A stretch of DNA of 64,000 nt from Prevotella sp. GTDB taxonomy: Bacteria > Bacteroidota > Bacteroidia > Bacteroidales > Bacteroidaceae. Positions 4,458-12,461 of this stretch are shown in pieces (the first letter of the stretch is position 1; the number at the start of each line of letters is the position of its first letter). Made by a program: the position numbers and the translations under genes. The DNA lies in contig JAFYJH010000045.1 in NCBI GenBank assembly GCA_017538195.1, forward strand, positions 486 to 64,485, in the 5' to 3' direction. The notes under the pieces were generated by a model. It saw nothing but the letters and a program-made list of their open reading frames with translations. It did no database searches and was not told the DNA's origin.

Positions 4458-4760
4458 TTATTCTATGTCGAAGATGTTTTGGAATCCACTCATCCTGAAG
4501 ATATCGGCCACATCCTCGTTGAGGTTTGTCACACGGACTGTGCCACCTTGGGCTTCGCTGGCACGTTTGACCTGCATGAAGAAACGCAGACCGGCAGAAG
4601 AGATATAGTATAGTTCAGAACAGTCTATCTCCAGCGTCTTGTCGGCCAGTTTTACAACTTTGTTCAATTCGTCAGACAACTCTGTGGTTGCCGTTGAGTC
4701 CAGTTCGCCAATCAGACAAACTCGGACTTCCTGATTGTTGGAAAGAATGTTAATTTGCAT
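4458..4760 (-). CDS. STAS-domain anti-sigma factor antagonist (RsbV/SpoIIAA-like)
   Basis: GELDS, IDCSELYYISSAGLR phospho-serine motif, 100 aa. Confidence 0.93.
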   Translation of the reverse strand: MQINILSNNQEVRVCLIGELDSTATTELSDELNKVVKLADKTLEIDCSELYYISSAGLRFFMQVKRASEAQGGTVRVTNLNEDVADIFRMSGFQNIFDIE

Positions 4761-4762
4761 AA

Positions 4763-5149
4763 TTATAAGTATTTGGTGATTGTTAATTGATTTTTCTCGT
4801 TTGTGCGCTGATAGTGCAGTTCGTCGGCAATCTGCCGCAACAGGCTGATGCCCAAGCCGCCTATCTGTCGTTCGTCGATAGCCTTAGATGTGTCGCTTTC
4901 ACAGTTCGTCGGGTCAAAGGCCACTCCGTCGTCCGTCAGCGTCATGGTGACCGTTGGGCATTGGCCAACAACAGTAAACTCAATCTCCGTCGCATGCGAA
5001 TAATCCATCACATTCACCACGGCTTCTTCTAAGGCCACTTCAAGTTTCTTGAGTTCGCGCCTCTCCATACCGATGCACATCCCGTACTCATGTAATGTAC
5101 GACGAAGCAGCGGCCACTGATCTTTGTGATTAGGCACATGTAGCGTCAC
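4763..5149 (-). CDS. RsbW/SpoIIAB-like serine kinase / anti-sigma factor (HATPase); probably the detached C-terminal domain of the upstream phosphatase
   Basis: ALEEAVVNV (N box), DDGVAFDP (G1), GGLGI (G2). Same reading frame as 5153..6763, separated by one TAA. Confidence 0.88.
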   Translation of the reverse strand: MTLHVPNHKDQWPLLRRTLHEYGMCIGMERRELKKLEVALEEAVVNVMDYSHATEIEFTVVGQCPTVTMTLTDDGVAFDPTNCESDTSKAIDERQIGGLGISLLRQIADELHYQRTNEKNQLTITKYL

Positions 5150-5152
5150 TGG

Positions 5153-9700: not shown

Positions 9701-11100
9701 GTCAATTGACTATCCTTATCGACCACAGCAGGCGCATCGGGTGTGCGTTTCGCCTGTTCGGTGAAGAGGTTGGCGAAGGTTTTGCTCAAATCCACGTCAA
9801 TGTCTTTTCCTGTGCCCATTTTGATGATACGCTCGGCATCCTCGTCGCTCACAATGCTGATACTGTTGATGTTGGCATCGGGTTGCGCCATCATGTGCTC
9901 CATCGTGGCTTTGATGGCGTCGGCCATGGTGCGCATCTGCTTGCGACTGTTCATCGCGAGGCTCGACTCCATGCGGATGTCGTAATTTTCATCGGCGAGG
10001 AAAATATGCGCGAGCATGTCATAGAACACGTCACCACGATCCTGCTGCACCAGCGGACAATGTGTTTCTCCGAAATGGTAAGCCTCCTCCCAGCCTGGAA
10101 GAGCCGTGAAGTTGAATGATATGCCTGGCTGTGCGCCCAAATCGCGGCAGAAATGCGAGAAAGGATAAGCCAACTGCGAAAGCGTTGCCTTCATCTCGGC
10201 ATGGACGCTGGCGATATACTCGCGGACGGTCTGCTCCTTCTTGACTTCCATCATGAACGGAATCGTACGCACGAACATACCGTATGCTTGTTTGACTCGT
10301 GGGTCGCGGCGTCCATGGTAAATGGTGGTATAGGCAACCTTTTCCTCGCGCACCAGTCGCGAAAGCACGTAACTGAACGCCGCTTGGAAAAGCTGATAAG
10401 GTGCGAAACCATTCTCCTGACACCAATTGTCCACCTTTGCACGATTGATATATGCCGACTCCTGCCCCATTTCGCCTACAGGGTTCTCTGGACGAGCCGA
10501 AAGCGTCGCCAATTCTACGCCTGCATATTTCTTTGTCATCTCCGCCTTTGCCCGCTCATATTCCTCGTCGCCAATGCGTGACGCCTCGTCCTCGGCAGCT
10601 TGCAAGATGCCATATTCCTGCACAGGCAGCGGTTTCCCTTCGTAGGCCAACGGCAGGTCGCGCTGTGGGAAGAGCACCAGATAACTGGTGCCGTCAGACA
10701 CCAGATGATGGATATCCAGCAGCATGTAGTGCTTCCCTTCTGTCGTACCGACGAGTTCCACGCGCAGCAGCGGCTCTTCGCCCATGATGTCGAACGGGCG
10801 GCAGAAGCCATGATAGGCATACTGCCGGAAGTCGGTTTCCGACATTTCACGACGCACGATGGTCAGCCGTTTGTTTTCATCCACATACTGGCGCGGCTCT
10901 CCATTCTCATCGATAAGGAAGCGCATGCGCAATTCCTGTCGTACAGCAAATATTGCCAATATGGCCTCCTCTACTCGCTGGAGGTCAATTTCGTTTGTCA
11001 ACTCCGTGATGCATGGAATATTGTATTGCATCACCTGCGGATATTTCATGCAGTCGTAGAACACTCCCAACTGCGATTGAAGTAATGGATAGGTCTGCAT
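6760..11100 (-). CDS. Monomodular NRPS: condensation - adenylation - PCP - thioester reductase
   Basis: C: HHLVSDG. A: YTSGSTGKPKG, FSFDA, NVYGPTE, YHTGD, GRIDTQVKLRGFRIELGEIE, NGKINR. PCP: FFEIGGTSI. R: LLTGATGYLG, YVYSK. Likely start MQTYPLLQ at 11100 (ORF track extends to 11154). Confidence 0.95.
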   Translation of the reverse strand: MQTYPLLQSQLGVFYDCMKYPQVMQYNIPCITELTNEIDLQRVEEAILAIFAVRQELRMRFLIDENGEPRQYVDENKRLTIVRREMSETDFRQYAYHGFCRPFDIMGEEPLLRVELVGTTEGKHYMLLDIHHLVSDGTSYLVLFPQRDLPLAYEGKPLPVQEYGILQAAEDEASRIGDEEYERAKAEMTKKYAGVELATLSARPENPVGEMGQESAYINRAKVDNWCQENGFAPYQLFQAAFSYVLSRLVREEKVAYTTIYHGRRDPRVKQAYGMFVRTIPFMMEVKKEQTVREYIASVHAEMKATLSQLAYPFSHFCRDLGAQPGISFNFTALPGWEEAYHFGETHCPLVQQDRGDVFYDMLAHIFLADENYDIRMESSLAMNSRKQMRTMADAIKATMEHMMAQPDANINSISIVSDEDAERIIKMGTGKDIDVDLSKTFANLFTEQAKRTPDAPAVVDKDSQLTYGEMDRYSNALAHQLIDFGVQPNDFVCVMLDRKKEFPLSVLSIHKAGAAYTPLDFEYPNERLSYMLENSESKVLITTHEVLEAKQAEGDFNIAAAKTFFMDDFMANVPDAEPIDLSNPDGLAYMIYTSGSTGKPKGAMLHQAGLRNFIAVVIDMEQLTAEDRVSGHRSFSFDAHIEDMYPVLTLGGSFHIMPTEIRKDLAQIRQFLIDHQCTGGGYSTAMTSLLLNTFDDLPIRFTTGGGEKMDGVYSDHIEIINVYGPTECTDDTSYYSIAPGRRVENIPIGQSVANNWNFIVDTAGNLVPQGVAGELCFAGVQVGRGYWRLPERTAKSFVDCPFVKEDRWGRPVRMYHTGDLCRWNEDGQIEYMGRIDTQVKLRGFRIELGEIESKVLNIDGIRQAAAEVRKVQGNEHLVLYYTVVDGCAIDDAAILAALKASSLAEYMVPDVYMRMEVMPMTPNGKINRKALPAPELQRTTEYEAPQGEMEELFCTIFSDVLKIKEVGATDNFFEIGGTSINAIKVIVEASKHGVQIVFNDLFTQKTPRSLAAFVNGNEGKTAVAAATPEATAPVIDSPEAEHFAPLNALLSANSLDNFREGKRQTIGDVLLTGATGYLGIHILNELLTNYHGKILCPVRAKSNDKALSRIKSLYFYYFGRTEVFCHFDERVTAFAAEVTEPDALEKAAANSQLSTLNSQLTVVNCVANVKHFSAGNDIEMVNIESVRHLVAFCFRTGSRLIHISTNSIAGLSIDNVPGPEVRLTEQDLYIGQNIDANKYVYSKFKAEELVLDAVAHHGLNAKIMRVGNLSARQKDGEFQINFNTNNFLALLRAYVVIGMVPYDALDRLFEFSPIDEVASAIMQLAQTPKECVVFHPNNTHRQFLSDILNGFAEAGITLKRVEAEEFQQALDRMMENPDLVTLLRPLMAYDMGAGHKTRWIESTNEYTTQVLYRLGFQWPTTAVDYVHRFVDTIVGFGFFEQTSRI
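7619..7650. repeat. Heptamer tandem repeat (agttgag x ~4.5) inside the NRPS R domain
   Basis: Encodes NSQLSTLNSQL with the frame preserved. Confidence 0.85.
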
Positions 11101-11105
11101 AATTA

Positions 11106-12461
11106 TTAGAATTTTGTAGTAAATAAACTCGGTGATATTACCAGCGAGAACCACCCCCAGCGGGCTTGTTTGCTGCCACTACCTTGTTTTAGGCGGTCCA
11201 TGGTCTCAGTGCCATGCATCTGGGTATAGCCTGCAACTAAGGATATGTCCTTCGAGAACTTATAGCTGGCCTGTAGTTCGATGCTGTGGCCCAGCGTACG
11301 ATCGAGATCGTAAAGTTCTGTGGCTGTAGCCAGATAATGGTAGGTGGCACTACAACTAAGCTTTGATGCTGGTTTGCCTGTTATTCCTAAATAGGCATTC
11401 TGCAGTCCCGGTGTAAAGCCATTGATGTAAGCACTCTCGTAGAAATAGTCAAGGATGCCGTAAAACTTGGTTCTTGATCCGTAAAGAGGAGCGAAGCCGC
11501 CTTCATACTCTTGGAGTGGCATGCCCAGAGATCCGCCATGGATTACAGGTACATATTCGTCACCACTCAGATAGTCATAGCCCAGTACAAAACCATAGTT
11601 TTCAGTAGGTTTGACCGTAGCTTTCGCACTAACCATCCATGCCTTTATCTTCCTTGCCTGCTTCAAATTGTTGACTACCTTACCCGTTTGGCGGTAATAT
11701 GACCCTTCCAGCGTCAGGTGCTTGGGATGGAAGTTGATGTAGCCACCATACATCTGCTGATATTCTGTGCGAGGTTCATTGTATTCTTCGGGCGCCTTCT
11801 TCTTACCACCCCATTCGTCATCGACCTCGACATAGCATCCAGCCTGCTGCCCGATGTTCATAAAGAGCAGCGAGGCTCCTAACGGAAATTCCCGCACATC
11901 GTAGTGATACCACACGGTCTGCATCGTTTTGTACAACTGCGCGCCGCCGTCATAATATGTGCCGTTATAGCAATTGTCGCCATTCTGGTTATAGGCCAGT
12001 ATGGCATGTGCTTTGTGCCCATTCCCTTCATAGCCAAGCCGGAGAACATCGTGGGACTGGGCTGCTGTAGCGAAGTCATTGGGACCGATGATTCGTTCGT
12101 CGTCGTATGCCAAGGCGATACGCCCCATCTGCGCAAAGAGCCCGTTCTTGGCAGCCATCTTCACCCAGCCCTCATAGAGCGTTAAGGCATTATTGCCTTC
12201 CATGCCCCATATCGCCTTGTTCTGGATGACGGCATGCACCTGCAGCCCGGAACGCTGGTAATCCACATTCAGACGTACACGTCCCACCATGAAACGCGAT
12301 TTGTCTTCATCCGAACCGCCTTCTGTTTTGGGCAGTCCGCCGCCACAAGCCTCGCCGTGCGTCAGCACGTCCATGCTGAAACTGAGCTGGTTGACGGAGT
12401 CTTTTTGTGCCAAACAGCCTGTAGCAGCAATCATCATCAGCAGTATGCAACACTTTCTCAT
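11106..12461 (-). CDS. Outer-membrane beta-barrel, alginate-export (AlgE-like) family
   Basis: Signal peptide MRKCCILLMMIAATGCLA; GRIALAYDDERIIG, GYDYLSGD, FAPLYG motifs; C-terminal Phe. Confidence 0.75.
   Translation of the reverse strand: MRKCCILLMMIAATGCLAQKDSVNQLSFSMDVLTHGEACGGGLPKTEGGSDEDKSRFMVGRVRLNVDYQRSGLQVHAVIQNKAIWGMEGNNALTLYEGWVKMAAKNGLFAQMGRIALAYDDERIIGPNDFATAAQSHDVLRLGYEGNGHKAHAILAYNQNGDNCYNGTYYDGGAQLYKTMQTVWYHYDVREFPLGASLLFMNIGQQAGCYVEVDDEWGGKKKAPEEYNEPRTEYQQMYGGYINFHPKHLTLEGSYYRQTGKVVNNLKQARKIKAWMVSAKATVKPTENYGFVLGYDYLSGDEYVPVIHGGSLGMPLQEYEGGFAPLYGSRTKFYGILDYFYESAYINGFTPGLQNAYLGITGKPASKLSCSATYHYLATATELYDLDRTLGHSIELQASYKFSKDISLVAGYTQMHGTETMDRLKQGSGSKQARWGWFSLVISPSLFTTKF

Follow-up and report, generated by a model that had tools for sequence, protein, structure and literature searches.

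A tRNA-bounded Prevotella islet with a one-module reductase NRPS, an outer-membrane barrel and a sensor-linked STAS switch

The operon and its tRNA boundaries

The window, a 64,000-nucleotide stretch of DNA from a Prevotella genome, carries on its minus strand, between positions 4458 and 12461, a run of tightly spaced open reading frames. These encode, in order, an outer-membrane beta-barrel (11106..12461; 451 aa, with a hydrophobic N-terminus), a single-module NRPS with domains C-A-T-R (6760..11100; 1446 aa), a Cache-PP2C membrane sensor phosphatase (5153..6763), an RsbW/SpoIIAB-type GHKL serine-kinase domain (HATPase_c_2; 4763..5149) and a 100-aa STAS protein (4458..4760). The NRPS and sensor frames overlap by 4 bp, and the other gaps are, in order, 5, 3 and 2 bp. 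Profile searches confirmed the domain assignments that the first-pass annotation had made for all five. The barrel gives a weak match to PF13372 (E 7.9e-7). The sensor is laid out as a transmembrane segment, a dCache_1 domain (approximately residues 30-255), a second transmembrane segment and a PP2C/SpoIIE domain (PF07228, E 8e-43) in which the four metal-binding Asp motifs are present. The N, G1 and G2 boxes of the kinase were located (PF13581, E 1.3e-20), and the STAS protein scores above the TIGR00377 cut-off, with a phosphoacceptor residue, Ser55, that is invariant across 32 aligned STAS proteins. As had been noted earlier, no sigma factor, PPTase or tailoring gene lies within 4458..12461; an Sfp-like PPTase, missed at that time, is encoded elsewhere in the same genome.

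The same annotation had counted five genes. The reading frames, their strand, span and coupling stand intact, but the number of genes is four. The phosphatase and kinase share one reading frame, interrupted by a single TAA (positions 5155-5153, minus strand), and the representative of their 90% cluster is a 666-aa fusion with Gln at the position of the stop, a length found in 8 of the 15 members of that cluster. Eight sequencing runs were compared at this site; in all seven that cover position 5155, drawn from four studies, it reads G (CAA on the minus strand). The TAA is a peculiarity of this one assembly and the fusion is intact in the population. Since phosphatase and kinase are normally one fused gene, the normal unit comprises four genes; in the stop-bearing assembly the kinase would be uncoupled from its sensor.

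A tRNA gene with a CAT anticodon (12659..12733, minus strand; called tRNA-Met by ARAGORN) and a perfect 45-bp duplicate of its 3' half (4379..4423, minus strand; 45/45 bp) enclose a space of 8.28 kb, which the operon takes up. The repeats are 8280 bp apart, the right one begins 35 bp past the STAS stop, and they are the only two copies in the assembly. The tRNA and its duplicate, which the first-pass annotation had missed, thus bound the operon exactly, as a putative integration site on the left and an att-like boundary on the right. Directly after the tRNA lies a hairpin with a 17-bp stem (12616..12652, minus strand), and several relatives have a comparable hairpin behind their att core. In G032 the same tRNA is occupied by an 8.1-kb element that includes an integrase-domain gene. 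No integrase was found between the repeats of the window, where the only open reading frames are the four genes, and no excision or empty-site joint was present among the joints listed; contigs break at the repeat. The locus therefore has the far-end tRNA duplicate of a tRNA-integrated island, but not an integrase of its own. From this arrangement, the four genes appear to constitute an 8-kb tRNA-integrated islet.

The synthetase, the barrel and a widespread cassette

The NRPS has the intact C, A, T and terminal R domains of a reductase-terminated enzyme, in one module rather than the two or more of peptide-aldehyde NRPSs. All the expected motifs are present: the C active-site motif at residue 131, the A core motifs, the T-domain Ser980, and in the R domain a nucleotide-binding motif at 1073 and YxxxK at 1240. 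An in-frame run of 7-bp repeats (7619..7650, minus strand) also lies within the R domain, and many unrelated contigs pile up there. The top NCBIfam model is AusA (NF047350), with a score of 627 against a cut-off of 2500, and the best solved match to the T-R portion is 6VTJ (the Mru_0351 PCP-R; E 4e-76). The C domain is the only one found in the assembly. Its highest-identity single-stretch relatives are mostly N-terminal domains, its best solved matches are elongation domains, and in a C-domain tree it forms its own clade, outside the first-module and internal clades of two-module enzymes. The A-domain pocket, with positions assigned by GrsA numbering, is acidic, and no characterised A domain sharing it was found. 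On the basis of this pocket charge the A domain is predicted to select a basic amino acid (Arg, Lys or Orn), and the predicted product is an N-acylated basic amino aldehyde or alcohol. The determinants of aldehyde versus alcohol release are described as unclear in PMC8024701.

A structure model of the barrel (pLDDT 77.5) contains 18 long strands, and its top Foldseek matches are to AlgE (TMq 0.60-0.63, 13-15% identity), so that an 18-strand AlgE fold is predicted. The protein is 35-38% identical to barrels of nrf operons (35% to an nrfHA-operon 'alginate export family protein'). There is no alginate or polysaccharide biosynthesis context, and no alginate or nitrite genes were found nearby. Its closer kin, at 86% identity, is the barrel of a cassette found in rumen and gut Bacteroidales, the canonical form of which consists of a Cache-PP2C-kinase, STAS, an AlgE-fold barrel, a two-module reductase NRPS, MATE and often Sfp. 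Barrel and reductase NRPS co-occur strongly, the NRPS being present in 34 of 38 genomes of the genus with the barrel versus 14 of the other 262; it was found in none of the nine genomes with weaker barrel matches only. That the genes are conserved together, a premise of the earlier reading, is correct to the extent that PP2C, STAS and NRPS lie within 8 kb on one strand at 24 of 54 barrel loci, but the exact layout of the window was not found in another species. Neither barrel nor switch appeared in the retrieved flanks of the closest NRPS relatives (0/21 loci); in 18 of the 21 genomes that have an NRPS of this type the barrel lies outside the retrieved NRPS loci, and this type is usually a solo gene elsewhere.

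Compared with the canonical cassette, the window has a single NRPS module, an acidic pocket, no MATE and a switch from a different clade. The export step that had been proposed for this operon would lack an inner-membrane MATE, which is present at 23 of 29 barrel-NRPS loci. The closest relatives of the PP2C, kinase and STAS are encoded behind a permease of the SLC13/CitMHS type, at loci that lack both NRPS and barrel. The window PP2C falls with such permease-linked switches in a separate clade of seven (support 100), and the STAS is 82% identical to a permease-operon STAS and 29-38% identical to the other aligned STAS proteins. The canonical sensors form their own clade (37 rows, support 99) and have a conserved Glu/Tyr/Asp/Asp pocket without the invariant R/W. 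These trees and identities indicate that the window switch has an ancestry separate from that of the canonical one, and that the islet is, as far as can be read from its genes, a mosaic, rebuilt version of a widespread cassette.

The Cache ligand and the output of the switch

The Cache domain carries equivalents of PctA R126, W128, Y144 and D173; an alignment with the chemoreceptor domain 6MNI confirms the register. The R is kept in 118 of 120 relatives and the W, Y and D in all 120. In the dCache_1AA amino-acid motif as defined in PMC8915833 there is a fifth position, Y121, and its equivalent in the window is His130 (81 of the 120 relatives have Phe there, and 31 have His), so that the published motif is matched at four of five positions. 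All five equivalents of the CahR-type AI-2 receptor residues (R126, W128, Y144, D146 and D173) are also present. Because the amino-acid motif residues also define AI-2-binding receptors (PMC9540692), they do not fix the ligand. The residues with which amino-acid sensors bind carboxylate and amine are nevertheless retained in the pocket, and a product of the N-acyl amino aldehyde type would have neither group at its alpha carbon, which argues against the earlier proposal that the Cache senses the NRPS product. It is likely, judging from these residues, that it reads a free amino acid instead.

A comparison with 121 related sensors, all above 480 aa in length, bears on the same question. The median identity to the window sensor is 59% for the Cache and 73% for the PP2C. 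In only one type, G199 (L040 and P0002, a twin at 99%), is the Cache clearly nearer to that of the window than the PP2C is (83-84% versus 72-73%). The G199 sensor adjoins an NRPS, in a gene order that differs from the islet; the last A domain of this enzyme shares 93-94% identity with that of the window and has the same pocket. This second pairing of the same Cache with the same A domain would link the ligand with this kind of chemistry in a single independent case. The window Cache is absent from all 18 other genomes with this NRPS type, where the best matches are 27-33%, and it occurs at E <1e-90 in only 3 of 400 genomes of the genus. Nor was a significant covariation of sensor and synthetase seen: in partial Mantel tests on 21 complete cassettes, in which PP2C, barrel and R were controlled for so as to take out common descent, the comparison of Cache distance with pocket distance gave p 0.07 for the A1 pocket and 0.21 for the A2 pocket.

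Phosphatase, kinase and STAS serine are all present as in a classical partner switch, but a cognate sigma factor is not: no SigB-, SigF- or SigG-class gene was found in this 83%-complete genome, the two region-3 sigma factors of which score best as RpoD-like (TIGR02980 scores of 124 and 115 against a cut-off of 234). Whole-protein scores are likewise below the RsbW and SpoIIE cut-offs. A sigma-less output, raised in the first-pass annotation, is therefore plausible. SypE/SypA (PMC8256260, PMC12826045) and a STAS-glycosyltransferase (PMC13555669) provide precedents.

Interpretation and comparison with known systems

We tentatively favor, at somewhat less than an even chance, a model in which the islet encodes a one-module reductase NRPS, an AlgE-fold channel and a fused sensor with its STAS partner, and in which a free amino acid gates the acyl-amino-aldehyde or -alcohol pathway through this sigma-less switch. 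The Sfp-like PPTase would prime the T domain in trans, the A domain would activate Arg, Lys or Orn, the N-terminal C domain would add an acyl group and the R domain would release the product with NAD(P)H. The barrel would pass ligand in, or product out, across the outer membrane. Ligand on the periplasmic Cache would alter the balance of phosphatase and kinase activity towards STAS Ser55, in the manner of SypE and SypA, and STAS would then contact a cytoplasmic target, in the simplest case the NRPS itself or the exporter of its product. Gut peptide aldehydes suggest, by analogy, that the product would most likely serve as a protease-inhibiting warhead. The domain content and motifs, the Cache residues, the Cache/A pairing in G199, the co-occurrence of barrel and NRPS, the lack of a SigB/F-class sigma, the sigma-less precedents and the mostly N-terminal relatives of the C domain count in favor of this model. 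Against it count the His at the Y121 position and the overlap with AI-2 receptors, the restriction of the Cache/A pairing to one other locus, the rarity of this Cache, the permease-linked kin of the switch, the missing MATE, the lack of a characterised A domain with this pocket, and the separate clade and elongation-type solved matches of the C domain.

The interpretation first proposed is only partly supported. In a fuller version of its autoinducer alternative, a cationic acyl-amino aldehyde or alcohol would cross the barrel and bind the Cache, sensor and synthetase having been swapped together, and we consider this somewhat unlikely. It would explain why the Cache, not the phosphatase, is common to the window and G199, both with this A domain, and why the canonical cassette keeps a sensor clade with a pocket of its own; a ligand without a carboxylate, AI-2, reportedly binds by means of these five positions (PMC9540692), and barrel and switch stand without a nearby NRPS at 13 of 54 barrel loci, some of them cut by contig ends. 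Most of these 'sensor-only' genomes, however, hold the NRPS elsewhere (it is lacking in only 4 of 38 barrel genomes) and so are not listeners; the islet has no transcription factor, and the partial Mantel results and the rarity of this Cache among genomes with this NRPS type also speak against such a loop. Alternatively, the islet may be a product of recombination, possibly in decay, its switch captured from a permease operon and acting on an unlinked transporter or on nothing, with barrel and NRPS as cargo. The affinities of the PP2C, STAS and barrel, the usual solo occurrence of the NRPS, the nonsense codon and the missing integrase all fit this possibility. Yet the islet consists of these four genes only, translationally coupled, and rebuilds the canonical functional set from non-orthologous parts; moreover, the sensor is intact in every covering run and G199 pairs this Cache and A domain a second time in another order, so that we regard mere recombination as rather unlikely. 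That the kinase sequesters an unlinked sigma factor, freed by STAS to control the islet transcriptionally, seems very unlikely: the three Rsb-type domains have their catalytic motifs and a second RpoD-like sigma exists in an incompletely recovered genome, but no sigma gene of the expected class was found in the genome or recognised in the islet, and the kinase forms one protein with a membrane sensor. A broader proposal, which we think improbable, sees in these loci a rumen Bacteroidales family of signaling channels, with the reductase NRPS making a signal, the barrel passing it and a sigma-less switch reading it. The islet would then be a new channel from non-orthologous parts, with a cationic one-residue product and a matching replacement sensor, and for want of the usual exporter its STAS would act on the synthetase itself.

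Barrel and reductase NRPS occur together in approximately 11% (34/300) of the sampled genomes of the genus, and related clusters exist in a rumen methanogen. Of the self-contained versions found, that of the islet is the most compact (four genes, 8 kb, one module, no exporter) and hence a practical test case for rumen NRPS products and for the target of a sigma-less STAS switch. A basic amino aldehyde could affect gut proteolysis, and if the Cache does bind the product, a dominant gut lineage would have a new chemical signal. Literature searches found no product, ligand or switch target for such NRPS-switch clusters and, as the first-pass annotation had supposed, no characterised Bacteroidales system with this layout.

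The association of NRPS and switch is not itself new, being in print for that methanogen. NRPS, partner switch and MATE were noted together in Methanobrevibacter ruminantium M1 in 2010, with environment sensing and NRPS regulation proposed (PMC2812497), in the neighborhoods mru0066-0071, mru0351-0352 and mru0512-0516. As in the islet, an N-terminal-C NRPS is described there beside serine phosphatases, an anti-sigma antagonist and an anti-sigma kinase, and the PCP-R structure that best matches the window T-R comes from this organism (PMC8024701). The described neighborhoods carry MatE and PPTase, both absent from the islet, and belong to an archaeon with two or four modules and no outer membrane, whereas the islet has one module, a fused Cache-PP2C-kinase, an added AlgE-fold barrel and att boundaries. 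The gut peptide-aldehyde NRPSs (ruminopeptin, dipeptide aldehydes and pyrazinones, PMC12327764; AusA) share C/A/T/R domains and reductive release but are reported to make dipeptides, in contrast to the single module and acidic pocket of the window enzyme. The 18-strand fold predicted for the window barrel is shared with AlgE and the nrfHA-operon barrel BT1414 (PMC10434189), but the close subfamily of the window barrel tracks reductase NRPSs. The Bacillus systems RsbU/RsbV/RsbW-SigB and SpoIIE/SpoIIAA/SpoIIAB-SigF use the same three domain families and phosphoacceptor serine; in the islet the kinase is fused to the sensor and no SigB/F-class sigma was found. Vibrio fischeri SypE is described as carrying kinase and PP2C on one polypeptide, with a single-domain STAS substrate, SypA; in SypE/SypA, as in Anabaena HenR/All4160, the reported output is not a linked sigma factor. 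The input of SypE is a REC domain, whereas that of the window sensor is a periplasmic dCache_1 domain, and its neighbor is an NRPS.

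An operon of four genes at a tRNA locus

The islet is bounded by a tRNA(CAT) gene (12733-12659) and by a perfect 45-bp copy of the 3' half of that gene (4423-4379). According to the ORF list and Pfam/NCBIfam scans, the minus strand between them encodes a barrel of 451 aa (12461-11106), a C-A-T-R NRPS of 1446 aa (11100-6760), a TM-dCache_1-TM-PP2C protein (6763-5153), an HATPase_c_2 ORF (5149-4763) and a STAS protein (4760-4458). Going from barrel to STAS, 5 bp separate the first pair of ORFs, the second pair overlap by 4 bp, and the remaining gaps measure 3 bp and 2 bp; every domain has its catalytic motifs. 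The first-pass annotation had described five coupled genes; the gene types, the span and the tight spacing are as it stated, but the number is four, since an in-frame stop splits one fusion. The PP2C and HATPase_c_2 ORFs share a reading frame with a single TAA between them, and the cluster representative of this sensor is a 666-aa fusion, a length found in 8 of 15 cluster members. A sense codon occupies the TAA site in all 7 of the runs that cover it, which come from 4 studies (8 runs were examined). These data rule out a five-gene unit. The normal unit is four genes, and the TAA in this assembly reflects either a nonsense mutation at strain level or an error. A 7-bp tandem repeat (7619-7650) lies in frame in the R domain and is common to many unrelated contigs in the runs.

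The end of the STAS gene is 35 bp from the 45-bp repeat, and no integrase gene was found between the two boundaries. The GC content of the islet is 0.507, compared with 0.544 for the upstream host genes and 0.392 for the downstream restriction-modification region. The 45-mer matches in 9 relatives and is likewise duplicated in 2 of these. One of the two, genome G032, has an integrase-bearing element of 8.1 kb (L106:7985-16078) inserted at this tRNA(CAT). The islet therefore looks like an integrated element, with its integrase lost or its mobility provided in trans. A sigma-70 promoter scan was uninformative for this lineage. The Bacteroidota -7 motif has a match upstream of the tRNA gene, but on the minus strand nothing ahead of the barrel gene matches it exactly.

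Directly past the att-like repeat begins a region (288-4322, minus strand, GC 0.39) that encodes Type I restriction-modification HsdM and HsdS, whose genes flank one for a Fic-domain protein; the region is probably the element that follows in a tandem array at this tRNA. Between the Fic gene and hsdM (2608-2730) lie three direct repeats of 40 bp, all imperfect, and in contigs of sequencing run X1 position 1451 is joined to 2731 and the Fic gene is missing. On the host side of the tRNA (12794-16800, minus strand) there are a fused serine dehydratase and a GH109-family oxidoreductase, with a further ORF of similar look among the host genes at 15754-16800.

Relatives and ancestry of the gene set

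Whether the set appears to be conserved depends on the gene used as anchor. In 21 loci anchored on the NRPS (64-83% identity) this enzyme stands alone or forms the final module of a longer NRPS, mostly adjoining a MATE gene, and neither barrel nor switch was found in the flanks of any of the 21, so that the neighborhood search proposed in the first-pass annotation did not recover the exact layout. With the barrel as anchor the gene types do travel together: PP2C, STAS and NRPS occur jointly in at least 24 of 54 loci. These loci comprise the best-scoring 40 places and 15 from NRPS-bearing genomes, with L065, a locus with a distant, nrf-type barrel, left out of the count. Same-strand neighbors of the barrel were STAS (41), PP2C (39), kinase (39), NRPS (29), MATE (24) and Sfp (15), all of them lower bounds, with uneven flanks of 63 bp to 18 kb and with one locus (L064) scored as having none, its switch lying on the opposite strand. 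The barrel accompanies PP2C plus STAS (37/54) more often than it does an NRPS (29/54), which slightly favors a role for it on the sensing side.

The canonical cassette of rumen and gut Bacteroidales typically runs Cache-PP2C-kinase, STAS, barrel, C-A-T-C-A-T-R, MATE and Sfp, and the genomes that carry it include, judging from locus titles, Prevotellaceae and Muribaculaceae. A search of 300 genus genomes recovered the barrel in 47, and a close reductase NRPS occurs in 34 of 38 close-barrel genomes versus 14 of 262 others; kin among these genomes are not independent, and the p-value is given no weight. The barrel is present in 18 of the 21 genomes with a window-type NRPS. Candidate sensor-only eavesdropper genomes are mostly accounted for by an NRPS located elsewhere in them. 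Samples that include many incomplete genomes yielded no window-type Cache at E 1e-30 (400 genomes from across the order) and no window-type STAS at E 1e-25 (220 from across the family).

The islet barrel is of the canonical type, 86% identical to that of genome G173, and the NRPS is of the solo one-module type. Among enzymes of this type the C domain shows 74-86% identity, against 21-33% with other C domains, and A-T-R shares 82-93% identity with the final module of certain enzymes that have two or three modules. The PP2C belongs to a clade of 7 (support 100) that is separate from 37 barrel-linked PP2Cs. Four loci of this clade (L066-L068 and L070) share a conserved operon of SLC13/CitMHS-TrkA_C permease, STAS and then Cache-PP2C-kinase, with no NRPS and no sigma gene seen; L070 has a second STAS in the permease operon. 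This arrangement suggests switches that act on transporters. The islet STAS is 82% identical to that of one permease operon and 29-38% identical to the 31 others aligned. No MATE gene is present in the islet. The islet is thus a mosaic, in which non-orthologous parts reconstitute the set of functions of the canonical cassette.

Predicted chemistry of the NRPS and the barrel

In the A pocket, acidic residues (Glu/Asp) occupy the equivalents of GrsA positions 239, 330 and 331, and Gly occupies those of 278 and 301. The pocket is identical across all aligned A domains of this type; that of the canonical second module mostly contains an Arg instead. The charge of the pocket predicts that the A domain takes Arg, Lys or Orn. 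With its motif intact and its nearest relatives mostly N-terminal domains, the C domain likely loads an acyl group, although it forms its own clade in a quick tree. On the same tree, the reading of it as the internal C domain of the two-module enzymes was rejected. A second C domain was not found in the assembly, an Sfp-like PPTase is encoded on another contig of the same genome, and the nearest match of T-R is Mru_0351 of M. ruminantium. The predicted product is an N-acyl basic amino aldehyde or alcohol. Cysteine peptidase genes, in varying order and orientation, lie near several solo NRPS copies (L011, L013, L015, L019 and L016-L018; C1-like, with C10 checked in L016) and would be of interest if the product were a protease inhibitor.

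The barrel model has 18 long strands, with AlgE as its best match. Distant kin occur in nrfHA operons, which suggests that the family may consist of small-solute channels.

Input and output of the switch, and known systems

The Cache model has a dCache_1 fold (pLDDT 89), and its top matches are sensors of amino acids, amines and AI-2-type ligands. It possesses equivalents of PctA R126, W128, Y144, D146 and D173, with His at that of Y121. Four of the five positions of the amino-acid motif set out in PMC8915833 are present, as are all five of the AI-2 criterion in PMC9540692. Canonical sensors keep a Glu/Tyr/Asp/Asp pocket and do not have the invariant R/W. Our tentative preference, held at a little under an even chance, is that an amino acid gates post-translational control. 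It is unlikely, if still worth weighing, that the sensor instead perceives the NRPS product in a loop. One signal ties the ligand to NRPS chemistry: a sensor in genome G199 adjoins, in a different gene order, a two-module NRPS with the same final A domain, and among 121 related sensors this is the only type in which the Cache (83-84% identical to the window's; distal pocket 88-89%) is much closer than the PP2C (72-73%). A general rule of this kind is opposed by the other producers of this NRPS type, of which 0 of 18 have a window-type Cache, and by partial Mantel tests of Cache against A pocket over 21 one-NRPS cassettes (loci with two NRPSs or truncated genes excluded), which were not significant after control, kin not being independent. 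That the islet is merely an incidental mosaic appears distinctly unlikely.

Control of a sigma factor by the switch is a highly improbable reading, and no SigB/F-class sigma was found in the 83%-complete genome. A pair of RpoD-like sigma factors, 287 and 290 aa long, is encoded there (L103:3014-3877 and L104:3777-4649). The switch resembles SypE, in which kinase and phosphatase are also fused and which acts on SypA without a linked sigma (PMC8256260 and PMC12826045). A partner switch whose direct target is a biosynthetic enzyme is described in PMC13555669, and in the islet the NRPS is the sole cytoplasmic enzyme left once the MATE is absent. Outside the islet, however, the genome encodes three full-length MATE proteins at unlinked sites as well as other STAS and PP2C proteins, so that the STAS target may lie in trans. 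A kinase-tailed MATE was rejected as the target, the islet having no MATE. Among the 26 MATE ORFs listed two exceed 500 aa, and the only one tailed is in a Prevotella-genus cassette, with a C-terminal HATPase_c_2 domain (L031:12846-14615).

The same genome has a second switch (contig C22, L023:6764-10509), consisting of a STAS-APH-type phosphotransferase fusion, an intact Cache-PP2C-kinase fusion and STAS; the STAS-enzyme fusion would offer a direct test case for output without a sigma factor. Also in this genome, an orphan Cache-HAMP-PP2C gene lies directly after infB (L024:6722-8734) and an orphan STAS after alaS (L025:6250-6549).

The literature covered, which included few subscription papers, yielded no description of the Bacteroidales cassette. 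For a rumen methanogen, PMC2812497 places NRPSs beside serine phosphatases, an anti-sigma antagonist, a kinase, MatE and a PPTase; the roles put forward there for these clusters are sensing, regulation and export. Judged from its genes, the islet is a real and coherent system and a variant of a recurring NRPS/partner-switch type, not a category of its own. The window stands out in having a four-gene, att-bounded islet in which the exporter has been lost and the sensor replaced.
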